Shown here piece after piece: positions 1 through 49,309 of a DNA stretch of 64,000 nt. The stretch lies in the NCBI GenBank assembly GCA_040285855.1, contig JAUFOQ010000002.1:2852001-2916000 (forward strand), in the 5' to 3' direction. The notes beneath the pieces are model-generated. The model was not told the origin of the DNA. It made no database searches and saw nothing but the letters and a program-made list of their open reading frames with translations. The stretch is from Eukaryota sp. GEM-RC1. Its lineage: Eukaryota. The position numbers and the translations under genes are program-made. The first letter of the stretch is position 1. Each line of letters starts with the position of its first letter.

Positions 1-2768
1 GAATTTGTGCGGCAGTAACAACTTTTCTAATTCCGCCTTTAGATAATGTGAGTGGTTCTAAAGACTCAGATATTTCAGAAAAGGCAAGTGGCTGCCAATC
101 AAGAATGATTGACAGCTCATCAGGTTGATCAATCAACAAAGAGAAATCCTCGACTTCCAAAGGTTCTGGACTACTATGGAACTTTGGAGAGTCAACAGGA
201 ATCAATCGGACCGAATCAGGGGTAAGAACTTTCCCAATATAACGTAACTGATGACAATGAGCAAAAAACAACACGCGATTTGATAGATAACAATCAACCA
301 ATCGATCAAAACAGGTCAAATAATCAACGAGATTCAAGCAGACTCTGACAGCACATCCCAAAGTCAGTGCATCAGTATAGATAGACCTCTTGTCCCCATT
401 AATTAGGAGACTAATGTCAATGGTTTCGAGGGAGGAGTCGTTGACTAGAAGAGATAACATTGAAGAAAGAGTTGTTGAACAAATATGATGGGAAGTCAAT
501 TCTTGAATAATTTCAGGAATTTTTTCAGAATTTGAATTATTTGATGAATTTTTGGTAATGAATAGAAAGTCGTTAACTGCTGTTTTAGTTGCTGCCAAAA
601 GACATTGAAAAGTTGCTGCTTTCAGCGCTAGAGCTGAAGTTTTAGTCGTAGGTCTGTGAGTTAAACAAAAGAGCTCTGAACTGAAGAAAAGAAATTTAAA
701 ATTTGATGAAACGAATCCAAAGTTGATGCTTCAAGCACTTCACCTACAGGCCACGAATCACACCGAACCCCACCAAAATCTTTCAACAACATGGAAATTC
801 CTTTAGGAAAGGGACAAAATGAAGGTCCATTTGTTCCCTTTTTAATGAATCTGTAATCCAAATAACAACTAGAAAGTACTGTACCAAAAGAGGAAGTTAA
901 TAACTCAGTGGAAATGATTGCTAGGGAATAGTCATCCAGACTTTCGATATCGTTATGAAATAGTACATTGAACACGTGATCCAAGTGTTGGTGCAAGTGT
1001 TGGACGTAGAGAGGGCATGAAGTAGGGGAGGAGTGGTGGATGAGTACGGATAACAAGGAGCAGAATTGGACAGCGCTTTCGATTAGCATTAGTTCAGCCT
1101 TGTAGATATTTGAAAAAAGTGTCAGAATTTCAAGTTCCTTAGCCATCTCCTGAGAGAAAGCCAATACTGAACCAACCTTCTGTACCCGTTTCTCAATGAG
1201 CTTCATTGAGTTCAATGATTGTTGAAAGATGACGAGATTCCCGTCATCATCGACAACAAAGCATTTAACTGGAGCAAGATTGAACAACAGAGCTATATCA
1301 ACATCTTCAGAAACGACATTACTAGAAGAATTTAATGTATTTTGGGAGTGATCGTAGAACTTCTTCATTGTTTCTTCAGTTGGGTCAACCAAGGAGTAAC
1401 CGAAACTAGACGAATCGTCAGAGCTATCAATGAAGGTAGACCATCTTTTTAAATATTCTAAATAATTCAACATTGAGAGAATTGAAATTCGACTGCTGAC
1501 TAGAGCTAAATGTCGCAGTACAAGAAAGGAGAAATACTTTCGATTATTCACTGTATTTAAATTTTTAAACGACGGACACGTGTCAACACTTTTGGCAGTT
1601 TTCTCACCGACCTCCATCAAATTAATCATCGACAGTGATTGATTAAGATCAGTAGAGCTCGGTGATGACGTTGTCCTCCTAAATCTATTCGCCAAAAGCT
1701 TAACATCTTTACATTTTAAACTTTTCAGCTCCGCAACGATGGCCAATGAATTTTCAAATATTACTTCAGATTTATAAAAGAACGATTGAGCAAAGGTCTG
1801 AGTAGGAGAAGGTAGTCCAAAAAGCAGAGGCTGAGCAACGTGAAAATAGGCCTCTCTTGTTGAGCAATCATCAATTAGTGCGAACATTGAATCCTCTTGA
1901 ATCTCGTCATTTTCTTCAGAAGTCATGGGAAAAGAATCAAAGAACAAATGTTGGAATTTGACTCCCATGTGGAGCAACTTCTCACACTCAAAATACAATT
2001 GATCCTCATTAAGTCCGTAAGATTCTTTAGGACCATCGGAAAAGGAAACTAAAAATCCAAAATATTCAGTTAATTCAGAAAGTTCTTTCTCCCACCCAAA
2101 ATTAGAAAACATATCTCTATTCTTTGACAATACCTCTGTCAACAACTGCTCAGCTCTAATAACAACCGTCGAATGATCAACATGAAGGGCAGCTTCAAGG
2201 GAGGGTCGGATGAAGCGAAGAAAACGTTTGCCTTCCAGTTCTTGGGCTTTAAGTGAGCAGGCGAGTGTAAGAGCATTAAGGAGAGAACTGGGAGATTGAG
2301 AGGAGAAGGAGTGAATGTAGTGAGAGAGAGTTGAGAGTTGATCAGATTTAGTGTTGATCATGTCAGTTAGAAAGAGAGAAGAGTGGGTGGAGTCACTGGA
2401 AGAGGAACGATGGATTGAAGATAAACGGTGACGTAGAAGGGTTATGGAGTGTTGGAGAGAGTCACGGTGTTGTGTGAGGAGATTTTGAGAGGAATTCATG
2501 AGATCTGGGGCAGTTGGGACAGAATAGAGAGAGGTAAGATCAGAGAAACAATCCAGGGAGTACGTAGAATCAGACAGGGAAGGTTTAAGAGCAGAAAGAT
2601 CTGATAGAAGTGAGTCAAAGTCAATGGATGGAAAGTCTATGGATGTTTGGCCTTCAAGTTCACATTTTTTAGTGAGATGAGCAGCATGCTCTGACAGAGA
2701 TCGCAATTGACCTATAAGATCATCAGTGGACAAAGAAAGATAGCTTGCAAAGGGTGCTCATTGTCCAT
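1..2768 (-). CDS. Large host protein of unknown function, runs off the window start
   Basis: ORF 661-2733. ATG at 2768 (MDNEHP) joins it with a 1-nt shift. At ~665 another frame stays open toward the window edge. Confidence 0.6.
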
Positions 2769-2799
2769 GAATCTGAGAAGATGTCTAACAAATTCTAAG

Positions 2800-2875
2800 A
2801 TTCAATAATGCTACAGATTCACTGTAGTAAATACTATGACTATGACAAATAACTGGGTCTAACTCCTAGACCCCG
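2800..2875 (-). ncRNA. Candidate Fanzor omegaRNA scaffold (3' part), overlapping the end of the ORF
   Basis: Hairpin gggtcta-5nt-tagaccc (2855-2873) in the last codons and ctacag-5nt-ctgtag (2811-2827) after the stop, just inside the putative element end. This is where TnpB/Fanzor omegaRNAs lie. Confidence 0.5.
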
Positions 2876-4935
2876 CTCCAAATGATGCTCCACAATGGTC
2901 TTGATGTTGATACATGCTAACTTGTTACGATTCCAAACCTTGGCACTACCATGACATTCTTCTCTACATTCTTGGGACTTGCATCTCAACAAAGCGTGAC
3001 ACTTTACCAGAGGTTTCTTCTCTCTTTCCATGGTTTTGGATTACTGATTTCTTTGAACACTTTAACGGGCTTCCAACAAGTAGGACACTTTGAAGAAGTG
3101 TAACTCTCATCTACGAGAACAAGGTTGTAACCATTTCTCTTAAAGAAGTTTCTCCACATCACACCTCTACTTGATCGGAGGTGTTTTAGGTTATGCCTCT
3201 TATTACCATTGTCACCAAACATCAATACACAGTCATTTTTATTCCATCCTTTTGCAGTCATATTTTTCAACAACTTATTTTCTGTTTTTTGAATATGGAC
3301 GTATCTTTGCATTTTTGAATGCGCCATATCATCAAACAGTAGTAATTAAATGTTGATTCAATAACTGTAAGTTTGGAACTCACATAGTCATAGAAGGTTT
3401 CATAAAGAGTGGACTTTGAATTTTCTTTTGACAACTGTTTTTCCATCTTGGAGAATGAATTCTTTTTTCTTTTCTCTTCTAAACTTTTGATGAACTCTGG
3501 ACAATCTCGACCATTCTGTCTCTGTCAATCTTAGCCACTCGTATTCTTTGTTTCTCATTTCACGAGCAGAATTTTCAGGCTTTCTTATTTTTTCTGAGCA
3601 GAAGTAGAGTAAATCCTTCTTGCCAGGATCAATGTAAACTTTTGTTTTCAATGAAAACTCTTCAACATCATAGTCTTGAACATATTCTTCTTTACTGGAG
3701 AACTTTACACTGTCTGGTTTAAAGGACATTCCCACACAGTCCTCTCTGGTAAGTTCAACACAGGCAGAGAAACCATCAGTTTTAATGGTATTGTTAAACT
3801 TATAACCTTTCTTTATAAATGGACGATTAAAGTTGAAAAAGTAAGACCAGAATTGATTTTGTTCAGCAGGAGACATTCTTTGAATTTCATCTTTTGAATT
3901 CCACTCAGACATTTTCTTCTTGACATTCACTTGTTTTGTTGACAAAGTGGAACGTAATATTCCCCAAAGACCTTGTGTGTCTATTTCAAAGAAACCTGGT
4001 GTGACGTGACGAACAATAGGAATTACATTGTAAGCACTTGCTCCTTCACTTTCAAGATAGTTATTTATTTGAATGGCAGATTTAATAAAGGATTGAGGAT
4101 GTTCACGAACTGATTTTAGTAGAGATTTAACGACTTTCTTTTATAAACACCATTAGCATTTTGAACATCAATTGATGGTGGGAAGAGAACATCAATAAAA
4201 TATTTATCTCTAAACAATCCTTCAACATAGTCGTTAGTTGCCCATAGAAGTTTAATTTTACCTGCAATGTTCAAACTTCTATTACTGTCGTCTTGAAGAA
4301 TTTCTGTATTACATCTTTGAATAAATTGTTTTATTTCTGCACGGGTTTTTGGAATGTCATTTCTGTTACCTTCAAGAAAGACATTTTTAACTTGTCTAAG
4401 TCTCCAACGAAAAACAGACTGTTCTTTTTTTTGACATTGTTTCTTCTTGATCACTCTTTTGAAAATAAACATTAATAAATTTGTCAATGTATTGAGCATA
4501 TCGCATTTTAATGTTTGTGTCCAAATTCGATTTAATAGTTTCACCAACCATTGCCATAAGCCGTGAGGAATGAGCAGCTGGAAAGAGTGGAATTCCTCCA
4601 TTGTTGAGCATTACTTGTTTGTATTCTTCTAAAACAAAGTTTTTCAAGTGTTCATTAAATGCAGGAGCTCGTCCTTGATTACATAATTCAATCTCATTAT
4701 GTTCAGCAGAGATGTTTCTTAACAGAGTTTGAATATGCTCTACTTCTTTCCTTGTAATTAAAGGTAATTTTTTACCATTCTTATCCATGTGTAATAAAAA
4801 CAGCTTCAAACAATAGGAAGTGTGCATTCTAAGTTTGTGAACCAATTGAGCATAATAATCGAGTAATAACGTTAATCCAAAATGTTTAACAATAGACTTT
4901 AGTCCAATTTTATGTGTTACAAAAGTTGGACGAAT
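2840..4935 (-). CDS. Fanzor1 (TnpB-like RNA-guided nuclease) domain
   Basis: HKIGLKSIVK N-terminus, FFEIDT, FWSYFFN, IKTDGFSACV, RuvC-I YIDPGKKDLL, VLMFGDNG, VDESYTSSKCPTC, HALLRCKSQEC, WNRNKLACINI, RPSYLS end. Confidence 0.9.
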
Positions 4936-7900
4936 GATTTTATTTGATTGAAACAATAAAAACAACTTCAATGCTAGTACACTATCTTTGAAGCAATAGT
5001 TCACAACTTCTTGAGGTTTTTCAACAACACAATCAATAGGCAATAAGTGGTGAAATTCGTCATGAAGACGTCCTTTAGATTCGTTTAATAAAAACCAACT
5101 TAATGATCTTAAAGACTTTGAACATTTTGAAACAATAAATTGCTTAGCATAGACGTATGAATCACATACAATTCTACCAGCCCATTCAGAACAAACTTTC
5201 TGCCATAGAGATGATAAATGAGCTTTAGTTGTTTCATCTAGCATTGGTTCTGGAAAGTCGACTCCAAGTGTAACAATCCTGTTGCCTAAAACAACATTAT
5301 CGAAGTCAGTTATGTTAAATCCAGTTAAAACTGACGCATTTTTATCATTCAAATAGTTGACAAAAACTCTAGTAACTGTTTTTCGTTTTCAAAAAATCGA
5401 AGGTTTCTAGAATCAGGTGGCAGTTCAACATCAGATTCATGAGTCAACTCTAAAGTTGCAACAAAATTGTCTTGAAGGTAAAATTGATCTTTTATAAAAT
5501 GACCAAACACTCCAGAAATCATAAAAACTTGTTGGTTTTGAATCCACACTTCTTTTCTGCATCACTTTTCATTTTGAGAGATTCATTCTCGTTCTTTCTT
5601 TGATCATCCAACTCCTTTGTAAGTGTTTCTGCAGGGATTTGATCAATTTCTCTAGTTTCAATATCAAAAGACAATATAGAACAATGATTAGAGTTATTTG
5701 GTAATTGAGAATGTTTGAGAAACTCAATCATTTGTTTTTTAGGAGGTTTCAAACTCTTTGTCGCATTTGACACTCCACTTGCTTTTGGTTTGGTGGTTTT
5801 CCTTTTGGCAACTGTTGTTTTTCTATTTCCTGTTGCTGTTGTTGGTTCAGTGGTGTCAGATGATTCAATTGCTTCTGTTGCTTCTGTTGCTTCTGTTGTA
5901 TCAGGTTTTTCACAAGCAGCAACATTTATTTTTGGAGTTGGTAAATTTATTTCTGGAAGATCTGTTAACTCTGGACGACTAAAGTTATGATAACTTTCTT
6001 GAAATAATTCTTCAGCTTCTTCCAGCGCTTGTTCAATCATTTTTAACTTCAAAAGACGCTTCTTTTCCGATTAGACAAATTTCCAGGTAAACTTTTGAGA
6101 AAGTTTTGATAAGTGAGCTTTGATACCGTTTCCTTGTAACTACTATCATCTACCATTGTTTCAGGAGTTGAACTTTCAGATTGACACTGTACAGGTTGAT
6201 TAACAGGTGATTCAATCTCATCAGAATAAAACTCATTTAAAATACCTTGAGCATGAGTACATACATATTGTCGGTATTCATCAGGGTGATCTTCATCAGG
6301 GTGAGTAGTAACGATTTGAGACAATATTTGTTTTCTCATTTCTAAGGCATTACAAACAACACAATTAGAGACTTTAGACAGAATTTCGAAAAGATTTGTT
6401 GATGTTGATTCACACTCGACAAATTTATTCATATAAATTAGAATAAATGGACCACAGTCATTAAGAGTTTGGACTTGTTGAACTGGTACTCTAGCTATAT
6501 AGCTGAAATTTGCCATATCAAACAGGAATTGCTGTAATTGTGAAATGACTTTGTCAATACGTGATAAAGTGCTAGAAAACTGAGAATGTTGATCTTCTGT
6601 ACACATTGAGTCAATAGAGAATTATTGTTTGTTTTCAATATCACAGATTAACAGTGACCAGTGAGTGGCTGTTGTACCAAAGAGACCGTCATGTATTGGA
6701 ATAAACAAGAAACGTTTCTTACACTCTTTAGTGTGTCTTTTACTGGACTTTTCCATTGATAATTGAACTTCTCTAAATTGTTCAAACATTATGTTATATT
6801 GTGAAAGATTAATAGCATCTTGAATGTTGGCTACTTCAAAGAACTCGCATAGATTACTCTTTTCAGCAATGTACTGACCAACAAAAGTCAATGACAGAAT
6901 CATGAAGCAGCACATTGGGTTTCAGAGTGTCAATTTGATCAGATCTTAGTAAAAGTGGTCTAGGACGAGATTGTGTTAGAATTCCACGATGTTGATGTTG
7001 TAAGATTTGATATTTTTGAGAAAATTTCTTCTTTTTTGGAGGATATTTTCTAGATTGACGAGTTTTTCTTGTACGATTTGAGTCTATAAGTTGATTGGGC
7101 ATAGTCAATGGCACTTGTCGAGTTTCATCAGGAGATGAAACTACTGTTGGATGTTCGGCTATTTCAGAAGTACCAGCAGATCTATTCATTTGTTGTTGCA
7201 AAAATGTAGAATGAACTATGGCACTGTGTTCTTGAACATGTGCTTGAATGTTGTTTGAAAAGCACTCATGTACAATACTTACAGCAAGTATAGCAAAAGG
7301 AATAGGATGCGTGGTTGCTATCAGATTTAGAACTTGTTTTCTCATTTCAAAAGCATCATAATCAACATAACCTTGGACTTGAGACATAATTTCCTGGAAA
7401 TTGTCAGATAATGATGCCAAATGAACAAATCTTTGCATATACATTAAGATATATGGTCCACAGTCGTTGGGAGTTTGATGTTTAATAACTGGAAGCTTTC
7501 CTAAATTTGAGAAATTTCCAATATCACGCAAATATACCTGTAAAGTACTTACAACTTGATCATTTTGAGTTGAAACGTCAAATGAAAGTTGAATTGAACT
7601 GTCAGTGTACATTGGATCAAGTGAAGAAAATGATGTACTATCAATGTCACAAACAAGTAGAGTCCAATGAGTTGCTGTACCACCAAAGACACCATCGTTT
7701 ATTGGAATAAATAAAAACCTTTTCCCAGTCTCTCGCATTGAATTCTGAACATTTAGAAATTCAAGAGCTAATGTGTCAAAATCGCCATAACTCACTGCAG
7801 CATGAAGATTCCCGATAAGGAAAAACTGGCATAACTCACTATTCTCGGTGATGTACTCACCATAAAAGTCAACAACAGAATGATCGAGCCATACGGAGGG

Positions 7901-8092
7901 CTTCAATGTGGTAATTCCTTCCTCAGTGACAAAAGGACCAGGGTTTGACTCTATGTCTCCATCCGTGGTTAAATCATGAACAAACTGTGATGACGGTTGG
8001 TTCAAATGACTATTGAGAAATGACGAGTGATAGTGCGAGTAACTTAATCCTGTTACTATCACCCGAAACACTTTGCAGTGTTTGGAAAGCAT
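2840..8092 (-). CDS. Polyprotein: 2A leader, Ulp1, Ulp1, linker, PolB-type 3'-5' exonuclease, Fanzor1 (about 10 frameshifts)
   Basis: Ten abutting or overlapping ORFs from 6863-8182 down to 2840-3031 join by small frameshifts, mostly 1 nt, e.g. T5 at ~5365 and A8 at ~4428. The breaks fall inside domains. First in-frame ATG at 8092. Confidence 0.75.
4950..5690 (-). CDS. DEDDy 3'-5' exonuclease domain of family-B DNA polymerase type (no polymerase domain)
   Basis: ExoI ILSFDIETR, FENEKQLLEF, ExoII LTGFNITDFD, VCDSY, SLRSLSWFLLNESK, ExoIII NYCFKDSVLALKLF. ExoII/III share ORF 4396-5352 with the Fanzor N-terminus. Confidence 0.85.
6300..6950 (-). CDS. Ulp1/SENP-like C48 cysteine protease domain, copy 2
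   Basis: TLKPNVLLHDSVIDF, FLFIPIHD, THWSLL, SIDSM, QQVQTLNDCGPFI. Catalytic H, D and C plus oxyanion Q are present. Two frameshifts. Confidence 0.85.
7310..7930 (-). CDS. Ulp1/SENP-like C48 cysteine protease domain, copy 1
   Basis: TLKPSVWLDHSVVDFY, FLFIPIND, THWTLL, SLDPM, HQTPNDCGPYI. Confidence 0.9.
7934..7975 (-). other. 2A/StopGo ribosome-skipping peptide DLTTDGDIESNPG/P
   Basis: Exact match to D(V/I)ExNPGP, directly before the first Ulp1 domain. Confidence 0.9.
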
Positions 8093-8167
8093 CAAATAAG
8101 AAGAAAAAGGTGATAGTGCGAGTAACTTAATCCTGTTACTATCACCCGAAACACTTTGCAGTGTTTG
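8027..8167 (-). repeat. Two identical 58-bp copies (8027-8084, 8110-8167) of a two-hairpin structured motif
   Basis: Sense strand aaacact-gcaa-agtgttt cgg gtgatagt-AACAGGATTAAGTTACTCGC-actatcac, present twice with an 83-bp period. Confidence 0.9.
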
Positions 8168-8209
8168 CGACAAAGGGAACAAAAAAGATACAGGTCAAAA
8201 AGATTTCAA

Positions 8210-8219
8210 CTATTTATAG
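8210..8219 (-). promoter_or_regulatory. TATA-like box upstream of the polyprotein leader
   Basis: ctataaatag on the minus strand, ~40 nt upstream of the first structured motif. Confidence 0.3.
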
Positions 8220-8661
8220 CTGATGTTGACACTGACAACTTGACATTATGGCATCTTCATCATATGTTGTACTGGTCTTCTCTTCATGAACACACCTCCC
8301 TATCATCTTAATAGGTGAAGATCCTTTCAATCGTGATCTTTTACTGTGTTTATTTAGCTTCTTCAAAACAGAAGTTCATTTTGACTACAGCTAACTCCAC
8401 CATCATATGCACTCTGTCAGAACTCTTCTCATCTTCACACTTTTGAATGAAAGATTGGGACTGTTTTGATTCAAATGCAAGAAATTGGACACATCATGGT
8501 CATACTCACTCCAACACGTCCCAAATATTAAAGATTTGAACTGAGTTATAGTTTAAAATATTTACACTTACTTTTGTTGAGCACCGCAATGACATTCATA
8601 TAAATAAAACAAAACATAAGAACTACTGCTACATTTTCAACACATAGATGTTGATTTTGTT

Positions 8662-8783
8662 CAACATTTGTAATGACAATATTTGTAGATACAACATTTG
8701 TAATGACAATATTTGTAGATACAATATTTGTAGATATAATATTTGTAATGACAACATTTGTAGATACAATATTTGTAATGACA
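8662..8783. repeat. 15-bp minisatellite, 8 copies
   Basis: Units caa(c/t)atttgta(atga/gata). Confidence 0.9.
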
Positions 8784-8914
8784 CTCACTAAAATCTTGAT
8801 CTAGGGTACAGGTCATTGAAAAAAACGATGAAAGTGCAAAAACAAACAAATAATACAAAGATTAAATCCATTTATAAAACAAAAAATTAAAACACAACAA
8901 CAACTACTGATCTG

Positions 8915-11900
8915 CTACATTTTCCCCAAATTTGGGGAACACTTCCCCAAACCTTCAGCATTGACATCAACAATCTCATCTGATACTTGAGAATCATGTG
9001 CAGTCGGCCGACGACGTTGAATTTGGTCTAATTCAGATTCGTAATCGTTAGTAGAAGCTGAATAGTAATCCACTAAACTCTCCCAAAGCAGATTTGTTCG
9101 TAAAAGCTTTTCATGTCCACATATAAAATTACTAAACCTGCTTCTGGTCAGCATAATATTTATTCTTCGCTCATCTGTCAAAAAACCTAGACTTTGAGTA
9201 ATGTTGCCTTCTTGATAGGATCTCACTGTACTGATAAATACAAAATCTACTTCTTTTCCCTGAAATGCGTCAGTTGTTGATATCTGTACATTGTCTAAAG
9301 GTGGTTCAATAGAGTCAAACAATTGTCTGAGTTGATCAACCTGTGCCCTGTAAGGTGTCAACACTGCCACACTAAATGAACGCTTGAGAACTTTTTCCAA
9401 TGCATCTTTGTGATCCTTCAAAAAATCACAAACTCCTTTAATAACAGCAATGGCTTCGTGTTCGTTGAATAAACTACCTGCCAATTTTTCTGAATAATCT
9501 TGAATTGACCCCCATGTGTTTACAAAATGTCTTTTGGCACATGTCAATTGTTCACCAGTGATTGGTTCCACAGTGTCAATTTGATCACTGTAAAACATTG
9601 AATTAGAAAATGCCCACAATTCTGAGAATTGACGATATTGTGGATTCAGTAGTGTGTAGCGTTCTCTATCAAAGTGATGTGCCAAATCAGATTGATCAAT
9701 CAATCTTTCCATCAAAGACTTGGACAACCCTGGGTTTTGATTGAAGACTACAGGGGGTAATTGTTTATGATCTCCAACAATTACAATGGTTGTAAATTCA
9801 TTACAAATTCATAACGCAGCCACTAGTTCAGGCTCAGTTGACTGGCAAGCCTCATCAATAATTAAAAGTTGTGGTTTAAAAATACCTTTATTCCTGTAAC
9901 TGCTCGCTCCTGCTAATGTTGTGAAGAGAACATCATATTCTTTAGAAATCCACGAAAGATCATCCTTTTCTTCTTCCCTCATCTTGAGCAGCAGGTGTAG
10001 TGGTATGTGGCTGACCATGTTTAATATTCCTTCTTGGTTGTTTAAGTGGAGGAAGTCTGACAGCTTGTTGATCTAATAAATCTTGAGCATCTTGTTCATC
10101 TTGTTTTTCAGCTTCTTCTTTTGCTTGCTTTTGTTCTAACTTTGTACTTAACAAGAACGGTTGAACTTCTGGTAAAGGATGTAATTGAGAACTTATTCGC
10201 ATCAATTTTTGTTCATCAACTGAATGTTCATCAACTAGCTTGGCTAATATTACGTCAACTGCATTATTCGATGGAGCAGCTACCCAAACCTTGCATTTGT
10301 TAGACAAAAAGACATAATCAATTTGACAATGGTCGTTGTTTTCCCTGTACCAGGTGCTCCATGAATCACATATAGACCATGGGAAGTTACATGCAATTTT
10401 CTAATTTCTTCAATTGCCTTTTTTTTGACAGTCATTTAAATTTTGACAGAGTTCTGAATCAGTTTTAAAACTTAAACAACTTGGTAGTTGTGGTGCTTTA
10501 GGAATAATTCCTAACTGGTATTGAACACGTAGAGGAATTTCTAAATCCACCATGGCAGAAATTTGGCGCAAAAAGTGACTACCAGAACCGATTTTGACTG
10601 CAAACAGTACAGTAAGTGGGCAAATAGGGTCTTGGGTAATTACAGACATCTTTGACCATTGAGTTGTCTTTGATAGTCGATGACATTTACTGACTATTGC
10701 AAAATGAACATTGAGACTTGCAGCCATCACGTCAGCCAGAGATCCAATCATAAAAATATCTGATTCACCAACATGCTCACATTGTCGAACATTAGACAAA
10801 AATTCTTGAAAAGCCTGATGAACATTGACTTCACACATTGGTAGATCCTTGGAAATACCTCTATTCAAAAAAGTTTTACAACCATTAATATTTGGCCTAC
10901 TGGTGGGATTCTTCGTTCTATCAGCTAATAATATTCGAATATTAGTCACAAATCCCACTTCTTGTTCGACTGATTGTTGTAAAGAATAAACCATCAAGAG
11001 ATCTTGTTTGTTGAAATTTTTGAATCCGAGACAGCATGAAGATGTTACTTCGTCCAGAATTCAATCAATCCAGTCAGCCGAATATTTGGTTTGTAAATTC
11101 AATTTTGCTCTGAAATTAATTTTCATTTCATCTGGCATCTTGAATCTAGAATCATCTTGAGCTATTTCTTTGTCTTCAGCTGATTCTGTATCTTCGATTG
11201 CTTGTTTTTTGGAACTCCACCACATGAACATTAGTGGTACAAAAAGACTACTGACCGGAGTTTTTCTAGGTCGTTGGATCTGGGACGTTTGATTTGTCGT
11301 CTGAGGTTTTTTTCTGAAAAATTTCTTACCAAAAAGAAACGATGAAGTATTAGGCTCGACTTTATCTTTCAAATTCAATAAAAATAGTAGTTCTTTTTGA
11401 GTTGACGAAGAAAATTGTTGCTCTTCATCTTCAGACCAAAATGGAACAACCTGTCTTTGAATGAACCTATCTGATTTGGGAAGAGGATCAATACCAGTGG
11501 CGAGAACAGTGTAGCAATTACTCAGAGACAGCTGGTCGTCTGGTGGGGATCTTTCTAATTCAGGATCTTCAGGATCGTGTTCAGTCATTGTCTTGATAGT
11601 TTGTTTTGCAAACTGTACAGCTTCTTCATGGGTGTTACATCTGGCTGTGGTAGTTTGTAAAATCCCAAGCCATTGAGACTGGAAGTGTAACGGTTCATCA
11701 TACTTGATCCAATATTATGGTTGTTCCTTGTCGATGGATACAAATGCATGGCATCCCGCTTTCTGGTTGGGTCGGATTCTTCTTTTGTCTTGTTCCGTGG
11801 ACCTGGATCAGATTCAATGTCTCCACAAAGCGTAAGATCAATCTTGAAAAGAACATACAGCGAGTAACTCAATCCTGTTTGTATGCTCTTAATAGCCTTA

Positions 11901-11956
11901 TGGCTATTGGGGGATAGAAAGGTGAAAGGAGGCTCTTCTAACCTATAGAGTTCCAT
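8915..11956 (-). CDS. 2A-led Upf1/DNA2/NAM7-like SF1 helicase (frameshifted)
   Basis: Walker A IHGAPGTGKTTT (~10335-10370), VAAPSNNAVD, IIDEACQ, VGDHKQLPP (~9755-9780), SLMERL, LNPQYR, LTPYRAQV, TTDAFQGKEVD, FLTDERRINIMLTRSR. About 6 frameshifts. Confidence 0.88.
11798..11839 (-). other. 2A-like peptide DLTLCGDIESDPG/P (N to D variant)
   Basis: Matches 2A except DPGP replaces NPGP (gat vs aat). Lies at the N-terminus of the helicase ORF. Confidence 0.75.
11851..11908 (-). promoter_or_regulatory. Third, diverged copy of the two-hairpin motif, before the helicase 2A
   Basis: Sense strand aatagcc-ataa-ggctatt aa gagcataca-AACAGGATTGAGTTACTCGC-tgtatgttc. Same geometry as the other copies with different, still paired, stems. 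Confidence 0.75.
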
Positions 11957-12005
11957 ATAGAGTGTGGAAACACTTATTTTGAGTTCTTAATCACCCACTT
12001 CTTTA

Positions 12006-12603
12006 ATGTCATTCGAGTCCTTAGAATCTGAATACGACAAACTTATAGAACTTCTTTCTAATGTGAGCGATCCATCAGGAAATCTTCCGGATTCATCTTC
12101 TCCTGAATTCCTTCAACTTCTAAACCAAATCAATAAAGTCACTTGGCCTCTGCAGCAGGACGCTGTTAAAGCAATTCAATTAGGCTTGGAATACCAAGAA
12201 CTTGGAGAAGTAGCTCGCAATGTACACTCTCAGTTATCATCACTCAGAATTCGAGCCAATGTTCTGCAACGTGAACATGACCGTCTAGCTAGTGAGATTT
12301 CTAATCCCCTTGATGACCATCGTGATCTCATCCCACCAGAACTTCACCCCATTGACAACAAAGCCGAGCTGTTTGCAATCATGGATTATTATGATGTAAA
12401 AAAAATGTGATGCAAAATTGAAGTTGCTGGACATGCCGCCAGAACTCGATCCGCTTGATAATCCAGATGCGGTGGCTGCTTGGTTGAGAACACAAATTTT
12501 CCTACGGAGGCAAAAACAGCAGATGAAACTGCCAGAGCCCCAAAGAAAATTGGGGAAAAAGGCCAGCCAAGTAAAGAAAAAACGTATGAATTATAAACTT
12601 TAA
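12006..12603 (+). CDS. Small helical protein of unknown function within the element
   Basis: ORFs 12006-12410 and 12418-12603 join by deleting one A in the A8 run at ~12400. Internal repeat PPELHPIDN / PPELDPLDN and a basic C-terminus. Confidence 0.6.
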
Positions 12604-12854
12604 TAAAAATTTAATTTTAAGTTTATCATAGTCTATCATAGTAACACTTTACATGACTGAAAAGTGTAAAACACCAACAAATTTACGACCAATCTCCATT
12701 CCTGCAACCTAGAACATAAATCTGCCGTGCTAATCTAATCCCAGCTACAACCGTCGTTAGCTAACCTGAATTAAAACAAAAAAAAGGTATCTAAAAAGGT
12801 ATGTAATCAAGTATCAAATTCAAAACAGTCAATTTCTAAGCACTTTAACTCCAA

Positions 12855-14943
12855 ATGCCAATGTCGACTAAACCATCCGCTGTTGCAGCAATGTCTAGGC
12901 ACTCAATGGCTCAGCTTCTAGAAGGTTTTAAAAAAGCCTTAGTCGACACTTCTGAGTCATCATCAACCAATGACTTCATTCATGATCTCCTTAAAGATCC
13001 TCAGTCTATGCAAGTTAATCGCTGTACCCGATATATCAACCAAGTCTTTCGTTATGTAGAAAGTCCTCCAGAAAGTCGTGGAACTCTCATCAACCCTCAA
13101 CAATTCGTCTATTCTCTTGTTGAACTCACCATTGCCTCTTATGGACTCTCTCCTGACTCTTTTGCAGCAGTAGAACATGCAATAGAAGACTACATTTTCC
13201 CTCAAATCTATACTAAACTGCTTCCTCTTTGTTTCAGTGATGATGATCTCGTAATGCAAACACAATATGAACGCTTCTCTTCCATCACACAAGACCAACT
13301 CAAAATAGACTCGTCAATGATCGATGAATCCCTTTCTCCTTGGTCACACGCCATCGCCAAGCTTTCTACCCTCCCTCTAACCCCTTCTCCCACACGTAAA
13401 CTCTTCGTGATCCTTTCTGCTGCTCAATCAATCTATACGAATCCAAACATTGAAGGTGATACCAGCATTGGAGCTGATGTTTTTGTTCCTATATTTATCT
13501 ATGTCATTGTCAAGTCCAAAATTCCCAATCTATGGGCCGAGATCAAGTTTATTCACGAGTACGGCGCAGAACGTCATTTTCAAGGAGAACTCGGATATTA
13601 CTTTGTCACTCTAGAATTCTGTTCAAAGTACATACTTGACTTAACCTCTGATAAACTAGAGCCAATGTCTGATGAAGCTTTGTTGTTTCAAGCCTCTACT
13701 TGGTTAGTTGCAGAGAAACATCGGTTTCAGCAATGGTCGGTGAACTTTGGTTATGTATCTGTGTTGGATAATGTTGTTTTGAAAGGTGTTGTACCCGTCG
13801 TCCTATCTAAGTTTGTATTAAACAGAGCTTGCCCTTGGAGCGTTGTGCTGAAGGAAACTGGAAGGGAAGAGGACCAAGTAGACTTGTTGTTGATGAGAGC
13901 GAAGATTTCGAACCTCACTACTGCACAACAGTTGACCATACGTAAGATGTTCTTCGAACCCCAGACTTATGCTGAGCCTTTGTCTACGATATCGACTGGA
14001 TTTGGGTCGACGATTGTGATTGATCCTAAATCAGAAATGATGGAAGAGCTCGGAGCAATCGTACTACCCACGTCTTCTGTTGATCAGTCACTAGTCAGCG
14101 TTAGGAACATTCTGATACTAAAGTTACTTGGAATTGATTGTGGTCACGTTTCTGATTGGTCGAAAGTACCTCAATCAGCTGTGATCTCTTTTAGAGAAAC
14201 CTTTGCTGCCCCGCCTTATGTTCCTTTAACTGATTCTATTGGGGGAGTACTTACCGAGTTTCAGATTTATCTTAAGGCTTTTGATTGCCTGCCATTGATT
14301 GCCCCTCTCACTGCTGAGCCAGACACACCTTCCTATCACGGAGTTTTGAGGTTTTTAACCCTTTACAATGGTGATAATGAAACTGGATATGGAAATATGT
14401 TTGGAATTGCTCCTTGTAAATTTAATGTAAATTTAAAATATTCTGAATATACTGGGTATGATATCAGTAGGAACGTGTTTTCTTTCCCGCACGTTGAAGG
14501 TGCTCCAACGATTTTCCCTTTTTCTTTCACAATTCTGCAATGTTTAAGATCTCTAACTACCGTTGTGCGATCTCATTTAGATATGTTGGGGTTTGCTATT
14601 CCAAATCCCGTGACTTCTTTGCGGAATTTTTGAAAAAATGGAGGAATTTCAGGAAGCTGCGTCTGGAATTACTGTACGTAATGGAGTTTTGAATTCAAAA
14701 ACATTGCTCCGAATTATGGAGCTGATAACTGAAGAAAACTCTGATGAAAGGAAGGAATTGAAAGCTAAGAAGCTCAAAAGTAAACGTGTTAATGACGTTT
14801 CAGTAGTTGAATTACGTAGATTTTCATGTAGCAGAAATGCCAGACTTTCTGAATCTTCTCAACGAAGTTCCGTTGATGTTGAAGGATCGAGGTTTCCACC
14901 GATTAGTTTGATTCCAGTACCTCCTCAAAGTAGAAATGAGTAG
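12855..14943 (+). CDS. VPS9-domain protein (Rab5-family GEF)
   Basis: SPTRKL, IGADVFVPIFIYVIVK, GELGYYFVTLE. The C-terminus continues after a shift at a T/A run (~14630). Confidence 0.85.
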
Positions 14944-15479
14944 ATTTTTTAAAAAATTTGGGAGATTCCTTGAATTTAGATATTGTATTTTGATGGTCAT
15001 GATTTGTTGACTTTTTTTAATTTATTCATTGTGTGAACTAATCATTCATTTGAATTGAACTTGTTAATCATATGATGGTCTTTTTGCAATAATAAATAGT
15101 TATTCGAAGACTTCAAATAACCTTTTCATTTTCCTATTTTTTTCTTTTCATGATGGTAGACAATACATCCTCCTGTAACGACAAAATGTACAACAATTTT
15201 GAATTTTGAAGTGTTTTTGATATATGCCTCAGAGTTATTAAAAGATGCATTCTTGTATTTAGGGACATTGTTTTTCAAATAGCAGAAAGAATTGCTATAC
15301 TGCTTCCAAGCAAATGAAATTGTGGTGAATATTTGATAATGAACCCTTAAATGAAGTAGAAGTCTAAAGAAATGAAGTAATAATTTACATTTATGACAGC
15401 AGATTGATTAACCAGATTAAGAATTCAAATAGTACAATATATCAAAAAACATATGCAAGACCAAAAACCTCTGAAACAG

Positions 15480-16616: not shown

Positions 16617-16889
16617 CTGATGGCAAAACTACTTCTGCAAGGTTTTAGTACATCATTACCGGATGAAGACTTTTTTATCATGAGTACCATATATTGACCT
16701 TGCTTTACATGAATTGAGTCTTTCTTGACCCACATCACATGTGAAATCGCACAACGATCCCGCGGTTCCTATGTGATTCAATTTCATCAAGTTTAGTTCT
16801 ATTCAAAGTATGTGCTTTGTTTAAGTTGGACAATTTCTTATATAATTACCGGAAGAACAATGGTTTTGAATAATCTAAATCAGAACAGT

Positions 16890-17134
16890 TGATAACTGAA
16901 GAAAACTCTGATGAAAGATCTAAACTGAGAGCAATTAAGCTCAAAAGTAAACGTATTAATGACGTTTCAGTTGTTGAACTACTAAGACTTTCTTGCAGTA
17001 GAAATGCTAGACTTTCTGAATCTTCCTCACGAAGTTCAACTGATGTTGAAGGCTGTGATTTCTACCACAAGTATAATTCCAGTAGCTCCTCAAAGTAAAA
17101 ATGAGTAGATTTTTGAAAAAATTGGGAGATTCCT
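16890..17134 (+). pseudogene. Partial duplicate of the VPS9 gene 3' end and UTR
   Basis: Aligns by eye to 14723-14970 (ITEENSDER..KLKSKR.NDVSVVEL..). Confidence 0.85.
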
Positions 17135-18221: not shown

Positions 18222-19151
18222 ATGTTTCCTACCTTATACAAACACTCAGATGCTCATGAAGATAGCATCTTTGCTGTGAGATTTACTTCTGAAAACCAGA
18301 TCGTTACTGGTTCTGTAGATGAAACTGTCAAAGCATGGGATGTTCAAAAGGCTCTCAGCGGTGATTCTGAAATACTGGTCTCTGAAACTCCGGAGTTTGG
18401 TCTTGGTGTTGTTCAACTTGCAGCATCTTCTCAATCTTCTCTTGTAGCTGCACACTCCATGGATTCTGCTATTCGCCTGTTTCACCCTGAACAAGGAATT
18501 CGTGACACTCTTGAAACAGGTCCTATTGAAACTTGGGGCGTTTCAATGTCTGCAGATGGCCAATTCATCGCTAGTGGAGGTATTACTGGTGTCATAACAA
18601 TCTGGTCTACCGATCCGGAACACTCGAAAAAAACTCTAGAATCTCGTCAAGATTTTGTATTATGCACAGCATTCGTATGCCCTCCTTCTCTACTTAACCT
18701 TAGTCACCCGATGGATCCTACCTTGCTTGTGGTCAACGCAACGGTACAGTCGCAATGTTTGACCTAGCCACAAATTCTCTAGTCTTTGAAGCACGTGATC
18801 ACACTGATCCAGTGCGGACAATCTCCTTTTCCCCCTGATTGTAAGTATCTATGCTCAGGAAGTGATGACATGTCACTACGACTGTATGAAGTCTCTACTG
18901 GTTCTCTGGTGGATACTTTTATAGGCCACTCTTCGTGGGTTCTCTCTTGTTGTTGGGATGTCATGTCTTCTCGAGTTTTCTCTTCTTCTGCTGATTCTAC
19001 GATACGAGTTTGGGAGATTGCTTCGAGGAAGTGTTTGGGTGTAATTAATGCACATACGGATCCTGTTTGGTCGATAGATGTTAGTCCGACTGGATCGTTG
19101 TTGGTTTCTGTTGGAGAAGATAAACAGTTTTGCATTCATCAAATAAACTAA
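18222..19151 (+). CDS. WDR61: WD40 protein, WDR61/Ski8-like
   Basis: AHEDSIF, VTGSVDETVKAW, LGVVQL, SMDSAIRLF, GPIETW, GHSSWVL. Intron 18675-18703; extra C in a C5 run at ~18833. Confidence 0.8.
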
Positions 19152-22776: not shown

Positions 22777-24060
22777 CTTTTCAAGATTTCTGGTTGTTTG
22801 GGATTTTACAAATGAAGTGTTTTTAAACACTCTAGTGGTGTTTTTTAACATCCACAAATTTCTGTATAATTTAGGTGTTTTTTAATACTTGTAGAAGTTT
22901 TAGTTTCTGATTTTAGGTATTTTTGTATTTGGTGTTGTTCAATACCAATTTCCGAGTGTTTTTCAACAGTTCGTGTTTCAGCATTTTGTGCTTGTAAATA
23001 AAAGGTATGTACAACAGTTGTTTTGTAATTATTTGGGTTACATATTTTTTCAAAACTGAATTTGTGATGATATCATAGATGTAAAAGCATAGCTTGAAAT
23101 GAACAGACAGGGGTTTATGATCAGTCAGTGAAATAAATGCATTTGCAGAAGTTAAATTAACATTACCACTAATTTCCTCATTTTAAAGATGAATCTGTAC
23201 GACTATTAAAGTATCATTCGTGATTTGTTTCCAAGCCTTACATGTCAAGTTAGCAGGTTGTATAGCTCTGTCGTATCATTCAAGAAAATGAAAAACTGTC
23301 GAAATCCCAGTAGTATATGTAATGTAATGATATTTTGACACAGAAAAGGATTGTTCCAACTTTCCTATTTTTCTAACATTGTGGACATGGTAGAAACAAT
23401 AGTTGAGTTTCTTCTTCATAACTTCAAGGTACGACAAAAAGTCGGCAGTGACAAGTATATTTATCTATTACTCAATACTGCTCTCCAATGGTTCATCGAG
23501 TGTATACAGACACTATACATTTAGCAGTCTTGTAAAGTTTTGGTTGAAACTCCCAATGATTCCTAGTGGTCTTGGAGTATTTCCATTCCTATAATGGAAA
23601 CGTTTCCGAAAAACAGAATTGGGAGTCAACAAACAACTTGATTATTCAAAAAAAATAACAGATTTTGAATGTGCGTAAGTACATTTAAATTATGAGTCAG
23701 TGAATGTCTAAAATTCTTCAAAAACGGAGTACCTTACTGTTGTCTTAAAATTGAATCCAGAAATTGGTTTTGGTGACTTCGGTTTCACATTCAACGTGGA
23801 GTACTTGTTATACGCATTTATACTTTCGAAATAAGCTACTTGAGAACTTTGTGAATATTGTTTGGAGAATATATTTTACTACATGTAGTAGTACATTATT
23901 GGTGACACTTGCTCTTGGAAAATTAGAAATTGTGGATTTGATTATTGACTTCGATTTCCAATAATTTGTTATCACTTGGAAGTCATTGTGAAGTTAAGGC
24001 GGTATAATACTAGTATTTACATAATGAGAATTTGGACTTTAAGGATATTGATCAATACTA

Positions 24061-24619
24061 CACTCTTCACAACAATTAGTCTGAATCAGACGAATTATGT
24101 ATGTCCATTGAAACATTACCAAACAATAATTTGTTTGATTCAGAGTAATTAGTGATTCAGACTAATAAATGTCTCGGAAAATTAGTCTGAATCAGAGTAA
24201 TTATGAATATTCATATTTAGTCTGAATCAATATCCCAAACACAAAAACTATCTTGATCCTCAAATCATGTTATGTCTTCATAAATGTTATGTTATACATC
24301 AGGATCGTTGTTGGTACCTTAAATAGAAGTATAAGACCGAAGAAATTGAGAAACAGGACTGATCGGCCATCGAAGTACCTCTTCAAAATTGATTAGTGAC
24401 CGAATTGTCTTCCAAACAAGTGCCAATAATGCATGACACGGGCTGTATATGGAAATTCAACCAAAGTGTCTCGAAAGAAAAGTGAAAAAAGGGATATATA
24501 ACACAATTTTGCTCAAAAGTATTGGATACTCCTAAGGTGGTCAAACAATAATTAGTTTGATTCAGACTAATAAGTGATTCAGACTAATTTTGAATTCAGA
24601 CTAATTGTTGTGAAGAGTG
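24061..24619. mobile_element. Tc1/mariner-type MITE
   Basis: Perfect TIR cactcttcacaacaattagtctgaat, TA duplication (24059-60, 24620-21), internal repeats of attagtctgaatca. Confidence 0.88.
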
Positions 24620-25399
24620 TAGCATTAGTAATTCTATTAGTAATTTGTTCTGAAGATAGGACCTTTTACAAAGTATCGGTCCAATAACTACCATAGCTGT
24701 TTTCATACAATAGCAAAACCCTCATGTCTGTTGTCAACAAATTTTTGCCGACGAAAGGAAAGTGTCACCATTTTTTCGCAATGTTTCAACAGTAGATCCA
24801 AGTGCTCAAACTTATGTTAACGGATTAAATGCAAAGGTTTCATTCACCTAGAAACAGCCTAAAAACGTAAAATTGATTTGTATTCCAAAGATGTTTCTAA
24901 ACTCAATCAAAAAGTATCTTCAAAATTTGTATTTTTCCATTTGCTATTTCTATTTTTGTTAGTATTGGTGAAATGGCTTCTCAGTTTTTAACTGATTTTG
25001 GATCTATGTGTAAGTCTCAGAGTAAGAGATTTAAGTTATCAATTTGGCACAACCGTTTGATTTATTCTTTGTTCCGTTCGATACCTCAGTTTTATAAATC
25101 AATCACAACAAAGCTGTATAAAAACTGTGGTACTGTTGACGAACAATTTTCTGTGTCTAGTGTTTCTTAGCTTCTTTTATGATGTGTTTTTTTGTACCCT
25201 TCAACGATAAACTGTTTTCGTCGAAAACCAAAATTCTGAAAGATTATAGTGTTTGTCACCTCATTTTTGCACAACTGTTTTGTGCAAGAGATTAATAAAC
25301 AGTTTTATTCATGATAAGGACAAACATATAGTAAATTATATATATTTTAACACTGTTTTTTATTGACAACAACACTACAGTGTACATCCATCTAACAAT

Positions 25400-25700
25400 C
25401 AATATCCTCAAAGTCTAGATTACCTATCTGGAAATTCTCACCAACCTTATCCTCATAATGTCTGCCAAGAGATAATAAAGCGCTAGATACTGAACACAAT
25501 TCGCAAACACAATTCGATTTTTCCAAAATCTAAGATCAAAAGTCGTAGATGGTTTTTCTTTAACAATCTTCACAAAGATTTCAAGTAATGAGGTTGCCAA
25601 TTCACCTAAAGAACCCTACAGTGAAAATACAAAAGGGTACAACAAGTAATTCGACTGTGAAACCGAATTCAATAATTTCAATTTTCCATTACATTTTTCA
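25400..25700 (-). mobile_element. 3' fragment of an RLE-type non-LTR retrotransposon
   Basis: YPFVFSL*GSLG...FWKNRIVF, similar to the fragments at 48631-48957 and 49382-49627. Confidence 0.6.
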
Positions 25701-34825: not shown

Positions 34826-36427
34826 TTAATTGAGTCGTAAAGACTAATTGACCATGCACAAGGTGTGAGAAGTTAAAAATCTTTTGTTTTCCACAACCAA
34901 GAACAACGATTCAGAAATTCAAACAAAAATTCTCCAAAGACTCCAAAAAGGCACATTCATTCATGTATTCGTTGCTTTGGATCTTTTAGAAGCATGGTCA
35001 AATTGTAGATCTGGATTTTGGTAAACAAGTGTCGTTGGCAATGCTTCCATTATGTTTTGGTGGTGATATACAATTTGGACGTGGTTTTCCACCTAAACAA
35101 ACTCTGGATGTACCTCGAAATTTCAATTCAATGTGTACCAATTTTGTGCCAACGGCAGTACTTTACAACTATTGTAGTCTTATTTAGGGAGGAGTTGTTC
35201 TAACCCAACACAAAAACCTTTTTGTTACCATCTTTGTCATGTATTAAAGCAACTAAGAGACCACCTGAAAAACCCTTCAAACTACAGCGATCGATCTCAA
35301 TCTGACCGTTGGTATCTCTTTTGATCTTAGCACGAGAAACAACTGGTTCCACAGTTGTGCCAAACGGATGACCAATAAGAAGAACACAATCGTTTTGTTC
35401 ACGAATCATAGCGTATTCCTTAACACTTTCTAAAACTATAAAGTTCCTAGCACTACATGAAAAGTTTAATTAAAGTAACCATACTTTATTTGTAAATTAA
35501 TGAAATTTTGTAATGTACAGAAATTAACAAACTACATGTACATGTATTAGTACTTAAAGATATTAAATGCTCTACATATACTCTACGAACCACGATACAA
35601 TTCGTCCGGAATACGATTTAAATACTTTGGAACACTTCTATACAATGAAAACACAATGCAATTGCACGATAGAGGTTTCTGAAAGAAGATTACGTACACC
35701 CACGAAATGATTTTGAAACAATAATATCAATGAGAATCCTCAGCAACATTACCATGAACGAAAATAATGACTAGACTTTTACTTCGAATCTGACAGAATT
35801 TCGCAGAATTTCTGGAATTCGGGGTTATTGACGACATTAGGAGCAATTCCACAAGATGATAACATATCAACTAAAGCAACATCGCATCTGTCTTTAAATA
35901 TGTCTTTAAGTCTAGTAGCCAACATGTTAAGAGCTAATGACTACTCATGCAAAGTGTACTACACGAACCCATGTGACCATGTTTGTATGGACCATTTGTA
36001 TCAACTTGATTTTAAACAATCTTTAGCTATTGTACCAACTTTTCAGAATTTTCAAATAATATCTTTTCAAGTTTAGTGTGCTTGATTTCCAAAAACTCTA
36101 TTGGTCCTGAAGGTGCCAGAGCATTGGCGGAGTCCTGAAAGTGAATTAAACAATGGTTCAAATTTATCGTGGCAGCTCTATCGACACTGAAGGTCCTAGA
36201 CAGTACATATGGATGCAAATGTGTAGCACACAACTCCATTGTACATCATGATATAGCACTACTTTCAGTGATTTCTCACAACTCAAGAAAAACTGATGTG
36301 CTCGTATTGTAAAAGAAATTGACGACTCAGTAAACACAAAATAGTGGTGTGATGTCAATTATTGAATTCTGTTGAATTCCGAATCTCTTGATGACTTTCT
36401 GGTCACGAAAATTAGAAATCACTCCTA

Positions 36428-42999: not shown

Positions 43000-43584
43000 C
43001 TAAACCACCAACCAAATTATATAAAATATTGTCCTCAACTTGTTAAAATTTCTTGAAAACTCGCAAGTAACCTCAGGCGGAAGACGTTTCAGCCAGTGAT
43101 TTATCTTAACAGCAAAACAAACCGGCAACACAGTAAAAGACACTTGCTTGCCAACATCCAAATCCAAAATTTGTTTCAATTGACAGAAAATGGAATCATT
43201 TTTGTCTTTCAACTTTTTCTTTGTTTCATTCAAATTACCAATGGAATTTGCTAGAAAGTTAATACTGTTTTCTGAGCAATTGAAAAGGAATCGGGTCATG
43301 ACATGCAAATGAATCTCTTTTGAGACCATCATTGACACACCTCTTAATTTTAATAGATGAACCAACTGACTCTGACAGACAAACAACACGAACAAAACCA
43401 CGGGTAAAAAAAGATCAAAAGTACCAACCAAAGATGTAACATCAGCGTAAGAATTAATTCTTATTTCTGGAAATTCAACAGAAAATGATCTCAAAATCTT
43501 CCATAAGGGCAAACAGAATAGAAAGGGACCCAAAGTTTCACCTTGTTTAACTCCACGTGAAGAAATAACATTGTAATCGACCAC
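43000..43584 (-). pseudogene. Decayed non-LTR reverse transcriptase fragment
   Basis: SSRGVKQGETLGPFLFCL, SYADVT (degraded YADD), KINHWLKRLPP. Confidence 0.8.
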
Positions 43585-48957: not shown

Positions 48958-49309
48958 TGGTTTTCTGTACTTATCCTGTTTGGCCTGTTCAGAAATGTCT
49001 AAAGGAGAAGTTTCAGACGAAGCGTTCTTTAAAGATGTCTTTTACAAACATCCTCTGACACTACATCAACAACAAACAATTTGTCTGAAGAAGAAGGGAC
49101 AACAACATCTGCTCTCCGTTTACCAACAAATTGGTTCTGTTTTTCGACATTACAATTATTATTATTAATGAATAAAATAACGACAATTAATTAAATGACA
49201 AAAAATGCATTAGCTCTACAAGAGCAAGTTGAATAGTTTAATAAATTTGCAGGCCAAATAGCCAAACGAAGACGCATATTGATCATCCAAGCTTCATCAG
49301 ATAGATAGA

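Follow-up and report, generated by a model that had tools for sequence, protein, structure and literature searches.

Fanzor1 (Fz1) proteins are defined by a rearranged RuvC-II glutamate that precedes a C4 zinc finger (PMC13565253), and their RNAs consist of the 3′ end of the element followed by 14-15 bases of flanking DNA (PMC10432273). Stem-loop 1 has 7 bp in all three Fz1 structures; the RNAs range from 75 to 150 nt, and those of SpuFz1 and PpFz1 contain only two stems (PMC11423790). The GtFz1 RNA overlaps the 17 C-terminal codons of its gene, and in two published scaffolds, inspected visually in the supplement, the final stem closes where the guide begins (PMC10432273). The target duplication contributes to the scaffold at the 3′ end of the element and to the TAM at its 5′ end (PMC10711439, PMC13565253), and reported Fz1 TAMs are AT-rich and 4-5 nt long (PMC13565253).

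We analysed a window of 64,000 nt (the whole stretch of DNA under study) from the metamonad Eukaryota sp. GEM-RC1, a single-celled eukaryote, in which a first-pass annotation had read an omegaRNA, its guide and its TAM from the end of a TnpB/Fanzor-like element. The reading that we prefer, a Fanzor1 3′ end within a 10-kb multi-copy element that encodes an omegaRNA in a (C)TTAG register, has, when taken as a whole, an even chance of being correct. To meet an omegaRNA where a Fanzor element ends is no surprise, and the RNA would be an unremarkable addition to its class; more unusual is the element around it, in which a Fanzor with a D-E-N triad is fused to an exonuclease and no TIRs were found.

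The Fanzor1 gene and the element that carries it

The Fanzor1 gene and its catalytic residues are located as follows.

2840-4945, minus strand: Fanzor1 coding region, in pieces (motifs; structure-database match)
3630-3628, minus strand: RuvC-I Asp, in DPG (motif)
3108-3106, minus strand: RuvC-II Glu (motif, beside the C4 zinc finger)
2926-2924, minus strand: RuvC-III Asn (motif)

The identity first proposed for the gene, a TnpB/Fanzor nuclease, was borne out and narrowed to Fanzor1. A 107-aa piece from the window matched SpuFz1 (E 5e-9) and PpFz1 (E 8e-9), the only solved nucleases matched, which points to Fz1, with its enlarged REC/RuvC, rather than Fz2 or TnpB; a 238-aa piece gave no structure-database match. 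The relative P0004 matched SpuFz1 at E 5e-24, with similarity spanning the WED domain to the C-terminus; its AlphaFold model (pLDDT 36) was unusable. At RuvC-I, the window reads VYIDPGK at 3639, and DPG is present in 13 of the 13 TZLM3-RCL proteins that cover the site. The RuvC-II Glu lies six residues ahead of the C4 zinc finger (VDESYTSSKCPTC at 3114) and is kept in 13 of the 14 relatives that cover the position. At RuvC-III, the Bao and Jurka pattern calls for Arg-Asp, whereas Arg-Asn is found in the window and in all 13 TZLM3-RCL relatives that reach the motif. This Asn is no bar to Fanzor1 membership, since active GtFz1 shows the same exception: it has Asn at RuvC-III yet cuts, and the D606N variant of SpuFz1 is more active (PMC11423790). 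A reading of the gene as nuclease-dead through an Asp-to-Asn change was rejected on account of that active enzyme (PMC11423790). The catalytic motifs are all kept across two species at ~50% identity. Judged by its sequence, the gene is a Fanzor1 with a D-E-N triad and a predicted RNA-guided DNA cutter. Intact motifs are no proof of cutting, given that CrFNuc-1 bound its RNA without any cleavage being seen (PMC10530073).

The rest of the element lies upstream of the Fanzor1 gene.

4980-5680, minus strand: PolB/Pol-delta-like 3′-5′ exonuclease with Exo I-III motifs, Exo II and III being in one frame with the Fanzor N-terminus (motifs; Pfam in a relative)
6049-7975, minus strand: 2A-like peptide (7975-7934) and two Ulp1/C48 protease domains, the front of a putative ORF2 polyprotein (Pfam; single ORF through to Fanzor in P0026)
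8027-8807, no strand: spacer containing two tandem repeats, a duplication of 83 nt (8027-8167) and a 15-nt array (8632-8807) (repeat search)
8915-11956, minus strand: ORF1, in pieces, with a 2A-like peptide (11839-11798), a middle region and a UPF1-like SF1 helicase (1B-like domain, AAA_11, AAA_12) (domain matches)
12006-12603, plus strand: ORF0, ~199 aa, putatively element-borne and present a second time, at 94-96% identity, on another contig (cluster look-ups)

From its right end, the ~10-kb element contains Fanzor1, a PolB-type exonuclease, a linker, a pair of Ulp1 domains and a 2A-like peptide, followed by ORF1 and, putatively, ORF0. PolB-type exonucleases carry the motifs Exo I (DxE), Exo II (NxxxFD) and Exo III (YxxxD). 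All three are present in the window, as befits a DEDDy exonuclease, and P0004 matches both Pfam PF03104 (E 1e-15) and the Pol delta exonuclease (E 3e-6). P0004, P0023, P0026 and P0029 each carry all three Exo motifs together with a complete RuvC triad, and in P0026 the 2A-like, Ulp1-like, exonuclease and Fanzor parts form a single protein of 1571 aa. The 2A-like peptides of ORF1 and ORF2 are assigned by the 2A consensus. The helicase is attributed to the element because, in other copies, helicase pieces lie near Fanzor or Ulp1 pieces: three tags from a Fanzor piece (GEMRC1_012053/012056) and three accessions from a Ulp1 piece. For ORF0, no relatives of similar length were found beyond its own cluster of 2, and an atlas search was empty. 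The nearest retrieved Fanzor-piece locus tag is 89 genes away from the second ORF0 copy; since that copy adjoins no retrieved Fanzor piece, ORF0 could be a host duplicate.

Ahead of the exonuclease the copies vary: P0019 set against P0026, and P0196, P0201 and P0202, show Ulp1-like cassettes that are not the same downstream of the 2A-like peptide, as well as an N-terminal peptide in tandem repeats that is absent from the window copy. The GEM-RC1 helicase paralogues P0049, P0193 and P0045 are more distant (43-60% identity), which suggests further element subfamilies. A natural element combining Fanzor with exonuclease, helicase and Ulp1 domains was not found among the papers listed in the literature searches; Repbase and the supplements of PMC10530073, PMC10711439 and PMC3627910 may hold some. 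Among the papers listed in a separate search, none combined Fanzor with the genus name, nor were organism names found in the searched files of the PMC10432273 supplement.

The proteins are multi-copy. A search with longer proteins gave 6 matches among 961 candidates (GEM-RC1 at 92% and 82% identity, TZLM3-RCL at 57-58%), and cluster look-ups gave 12+1+1 proteins of the GEM-RC1 type, among them that of the window itself, and 16 from TZLM3-RCL, the latter spread over 8 contigs. By these protein sequences, the Fanzor family is multi-copy in two metamonads, with intact proteins in the relative. Scans for the relatives' DNA returned 0 of 9 stretches from viral contigs, 0 of 45 from prokaryote genomes and 1 of 63 from metagenomes, the last being a spurious 13-aa match. 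The single hit of a second viral scan (1 of 111) was a distant, unfused Fanzor1 (L002 4675-7119, 814 aa) with Asp at RuvC-III, on a 527-kb giant-virus-like contig.

The window copy contains many frame breaks, most of which lie beside homopolymer runs (7 sites inspected). The break in an A-run at ~3314-3318 ends all 6 of the other GEM-RC1-type proteins that reach it, including the 82%-identity subfamily, and is read through by 11 of the 12 TZLM3-RCL proteins covering it. Downstream of this break, the RuvC-II/III piece has its own ATG at 3327. A second break, at ~6060, also terminates P0202 and P0204. For both assemblies, R9 nanopore data were used together with Illumina correction (10.1101/2023.05.03.539051), which makes base-calling error in repeats plausible; the shared A-run breaks may plausibly be such a systematic error, or else a real split or a programmed frameshift. 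Other lesions are specific to the window copy: in-frame stops in the helicase and in the second Ulp1 domain, which other copies do not have, and a ~20-nt deletion near 3433, in the RuvC insertion. The window copy is decayed and probably not autonomous and, carrying these breaks, it would need protein from another copy.

The predicted omegaRNA at the right end

The region between the last Fanzor codons and the flank contains the following features.

2855-2873, minus strand: stem-loop 1, 7 bp with a 5-nt loop, predicted omegaRNA scaffold (sequence; pair probability; 7-bp SL1 in three Fz1 structures)
2840-2842, minus strand: Fanzor stop, TAG (sequence)
2802-2845, minus strand: stem 2 region, folding as a 6-bp hairpin (2827-2811) or, at about the same energy, as a long bulged stem (2845-2802) (folding)
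2780-2794, minus strand: predicted 15-nt guide in the preferred register

The letters claimed by the first-pass annotation (two hairpins, the stop, CTTAG with its flank and a distant gtgCTTAG) are all present on the minus strand. Stem-loop 1 reads GGGTCTA-GGAGT-TAGACCC at 2873-2855, within the final codons of the ORF 3031-2840; hairpin 2 reads CTACAG-TGAAT-CTGTAG, with 6 bp, at 2827-2811; and CTTAG at 2799-2795 is followed by the flank AATTTGTTAGACATC at 2794-2780. As folded RNA, the two hairpins fared differently. Hairpin 1 is robust, with a pair probability of 0.95-0.99 in 8 of 8 trial boundaries and, by energy, the 6th rank among the window's 48 perfect stems of 7 bp and longer, whereas hairpin 2 is metastable (probability 0.37-0.92), its rival being the long bulged stem 2845-2802, the base of which has a probability of 0.38 or less. 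A pair of hairpins of this kind in a span of 100 nt occurs in 7 of 639 windows.

The predicted RNA lies between the 3′ end of the gene and the predicted element end. Its position, its length of ~80 nt and its 7-bp first stem all fit Fanzor1 omegaRNAs, and for these reasons we consider it likely that an omegaRNA is encoded at the Fanzor end of the element, in the region 2775-2875. An improbable alternative is that the hairpins are incidental, with stem 1 derived from codons and the remainder a 3′-UTR or DNA end signal, so that no RNA guide comes from the right end and the protein acts otherwise or is a passenger. Thermodynamic stability agrees with this alternative. The 101-nt RNA 2775-2875 has no excess stability over its shuffles (z -0.73, with 40 of 200 shuffles as good), 9.6% of 1559 same-length windows fold as well, and a z of -2.2 was reached by only one of five folded stretches, 2760-2900, which includes host flank. 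As single-stranded DNA, 2790-2880 folds better than 200 of 200 shuffles (z -3.7), which fits a DNA end signal equally, and the six matches in an Rfam scan of the region were all far below the gathering score. Against it stand the full conservation of the catalytic motifs across two species at ~50% identity, the 7-bp stem at the expected place and the finding that characterised Fanzors bind RNA from exactly such a position (PMC10432273, PMC10530073).

Searches for further copies of the RNA end were negative within their scope: the window held no second copy or ghost of the Fanzor right end, and an exact hairpin-pattern search for relatives gave 0 matches. The predicted guide 2794-2780 has no further site with two or fewer mismatches within the window.

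Element ends, guide register and the empty site

The following features delimit the two predicted ends.

2789-2799, minus strand: right direct repeat, 11 nt, in which CTTAG (2799-2795) is the predicted scaffold end (repeat comparison)
12830-12840, minus strand: left direct repeat, 11 nt, in which CTTAG (12840-12836) is the predicted TAM (repeat comparison)
661-2769, minus strand: right neighbour, putative host gene, no Pfam match; its ATG at 2769 joins a 690-aa frame only with a frame change near 2735 (ORFs; Pfam)
12855-14633, plus strand: left neighbour, host gene with a VPS9 domain, cluster of 1 (domain; cluster look-up)

The right end is bounded by stem 2 and by the neighbour's presumed ATG at 2769, a start that needs the frame change near 2735. 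The left end most likely lies in 12604-12854, since ORF0 has a second copy and the VPS9 gene is a cluster of 1, and this bracket contains a single minus-strand CTTAG. There, ~10 kb from the right CTTAG, GTGCTTAG is found at 12843-12836 on the minus strand; taken by itself, it is at chance level (1 found, 1.12 expected). The first-pass annotation had described a shared CTTAG. This motif is indeed at both ends, but the repeat is longer than 5 nt: it covers 11 nt, one of which is mismatched, and reads CTTAGAATTTG on the right (2799-2789) and CTTAGAAATTG on the left (12840-12830). A 10-of-11 repeat is expected by chance with P 0.17 when 41 x 251 nt, the whole bracket, is compared, and with P 0.044 within 60 nt of the VPS9 ATG (41 x 60 nt, a span picked after the match had been seen); 35 of 406 unrelated real windows match as the 11-nt repeat does. 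CTTAG also terminates one of two introns that we inspected. These introns, of ~30 nt, lie at 46110-46145 and 18675-18705 and have a branch-like CTAAC or TTAAC a few bases ahead of AG.

A repeat of 11 nt rather than 5 makes three registers possible, and folding gives no preference among the three. With 2795 as the last scaffold base, pairing of that base costs 1.7 kcal/mol and has a probability of 0.02; the cheapest stem closures are at 2803, 2802, 2798 and 2794, and last-base pairing never exceeds 0.28 for junctions from 2806 to 2785. Set beside the junction-closing stems of the two published scaffolds, these values count against a scaffold that ends at 2795. The register that we prefer has a scaffold to CUUAG, a guide from 2794-2780 and the TAM (C)TTAG, and it is chosen for its agreement with the published origin of Fz1 RNAs, the 7-bp stem, the duplication within the scaffold and the 4-5-nt AT-rich TAMs. 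We regard this guide start and TAM as equally likely to be right or wrong. A TAM deduced from contact residues was dropped, that region being not conserved between Fz1s (PMC11423790).

With the same omegaRNA, the element could instead end at ~2802-2800, immediately ahead of the repeat, which we consider quite unlikely. The whole 11-nt repeat would then be a variable target duplication, with the guide at 2799-2785 and an AGTG-like TAM before the left repeat. The minimum-energy long stem 2 closes at 2802, just as stem 2 of SpuFz1 closes at the junction (PMC10432273), and CRe-1/2/3 have variable duplications of 7-19 bp after a fixed TTTT motif (PMC3627910). However, the base of this stem has a probability of at most 0.38, AGTG is less AT-rich than reported Fz1 TAMs (PMC13565253), and a guide in this register would match the filled left junction, beside a TAM, at 10 of its first 11 bases, a risk of self-targeting.

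It is also possible, if unlikely, that the omegaRNA is here and the pairing of the two CTTAG motifs is coincidental, in line with a repeat P of 0.09-0.17. The left end would then be near 12645 or, should ORF0 belong to the host, in 11957-12005; alternatively, the guide would start from 2788. The TAM would then be unreadable from the window copy. Near 12645 there is a hairpin and an 8-nt inverted match to 2832-2839, an 8-mer just upstream of the 3′ hairpin, like the ATIRs of Helitron2 (PMC3627910), and other copies differ in the sequence ahead of the ORF2 2A motif. Yet windows of this size share an 8-mer with P 0.47 (calculated on direct matches), the hairpin on the left is weak (z -1.7), neither a Rep/HUH nor a Pif1 domain was found, and no similar-length ORF0 relative was found outside the cluster of 2.

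Under the preferred (C)TTAG register, the scaffold would span ~80 nt, comprising the 7-bp stem 1 and stem 2 and ending in CUUAG, and the flank (2794-2780) would supply the 15 nt of guide that follow. The target of the ribonucleoprotein would be (C)TTAG plus a guide match, as present where this locus, with its two divergent host genes, is free of the element. A match of the guide to the empty site follows necessarily, as the guide is the flank. Cutting of the empty site, followed by repair from a filled copy, would restore or spread the element (restorative or allelic homing), and the fused exonuclease might process the cut ends. The filled left junction agrees with the first 6 guide bases at only 5 positions and would be spared. 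The 11-nt repeat would be the insertion scar, consisting of the motif and six further target bases, as in TIR-less MCi-2 (PMC3627910). The rebuilt empty site has divergent start codons separated by a gap of 44 nt, which fits the local spacing: eight divergent pairs were found in the window, with gaps of 28, 30, 76, 87, 126, 314, 1266 and 1712 nt, five of the eight being 28-126 nt. The interpretation in the first-pass annotation is upheld as to the Fanzor1 gene, the fold, position and size that fit an omegaRNA and the left bracket with its single CTTAG; the guide start and TAM that it gave are not fixed, with a repeat P of 0.04-0.17.

Transposition and comparison with known systems

Of 813 inverted pairs, the 25 longest include none that would connect the element ends as a terminal inverted repeat. 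Between the end brackets, the longest exact inverted match is 8 nt, subterminal, and as a Helitron2-like end this candidate is at chance level. No DDE transposase, recombinase or Rep match was found in the pieces scanned with Pfam or in the seven proteins scanned with NCBIfam and PHROGs. A Helitron2 RepHel is not apparent; the helicase is UPF1-like, AAA_11/AAA_12 with a 1B-like domain, and Rep/HUH and Pif1 were not found.

As a conservative guess, the element reaches new sites through a partner in trans, which could be a transposase. RNA-guided self-copying with no transposase, which we consider very unlikely, would have Fanzor open a TTAG-led site, the exonuclease trim it, and the helicase and host repair copy the element in, leaving the TAM and a few target bases duplicated, while the 2A-like and Ulp1 parts process the polyprotein. 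If true, nature would have produced an RNA-guided editor that joins a nuclease to an exonuclease, and eukaryotic DNA transposons would gain a new kind. A family on many contigs in two species, with no recognisable transposase in this copy, bears on the mobility of Fanzor elements that, like MCi-2 and CRe-1, have long duplications and no TIRs. In engineering, exonucleases are fused to Cas12f, Cas9 and Fanzor with the aim of altering editing outcomes. This family has a Fanzor-exonuclease fusion by nature, its motifs intact in several copies, and offers a concrete predicted scaffold, guide and TAM to test.

The window contains other repeats. At 48078-49619, 274-nt inverted repeats (91%) ~1 kb apart surround a 136-aa frame that has no Pfam match, and look like a separate TIR element. 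Direct repeats of ~370 nt (53167-53548 and 56349-56724, 83-85%) surround an LRR gene whose repeat units measure 84 nt (54245-55503); the whole may be an LRR cassette that moves or recombines, and related sequence lies at 35591-36168. Direct repeats 2.17 kb apart (14720-14961 and 16887-17126, 84-89%) surround a zf-UBP/PH gene, a decayed reverse-transcriptase-like frame (RVT_1, E 0.01) lies at 43000-43650, and short direct and inverted repeats (33-47 nt) cluster at 24012-25438, possibly a MITE.

Among described systems, SpuFz1/Spu-1 (PMC10432273; PDB 8gkh) is the best structure-database match and resembles the element in its two-stem scaffold of similar length, its 15-nt flank guide and a target duplication at the scaffold end and within the TAM. 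Spu-1 is 2.1 kb long, with one ORF, 30-nt inverted repeats, Asp at RuvC-III and its RNA after the stop (PMC10432273). By contrast, the element here is ~10 kb long, with TIRs not found, Asn at RuvC-III, stem 1 inside the coding region and an N-terminal exonuclease/Ulp1/2A-like extension. GtFz1 of Guillardia theta (PMC11423790) shares the D-E-N triad and an RNA over the last codons, and its TTAA TAM resembles the predicted TTAG. It differs in its 150-nt four-stem RNA, and the available text of that report mentions no fusion. Because GtFz1 is absent among the matches at E 0.01, the shared Asn may be convergent. The Helitron2-derived Fanzor1 elements CRe-1/2/3 of Chlamydomonas (PMC3627910, PMC10530073) have ends that match verified Helitrons with RepHel, whereas the element here has a UPF1-like helicase, with Rep/HUH undetected; they are alike in the 3′ hairpin end, the duplications (7-19 bp) and the many 5′-truncated copies. 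The MCi-2 Fanzor1 element of Mucor circinelloides (PMC3627910), likened by description only, includes a copy, MCi-2A, with a partial Crypton recombinase, and the available text leaves exonuclease, helicase and protease unmentioned. It is also TIR-less, with 11-12-bp duplications made of a fixed motif and variable bases and no complete transposase, and it has a variable 5′ region and a conserved 6-kb 3′ region, as here.
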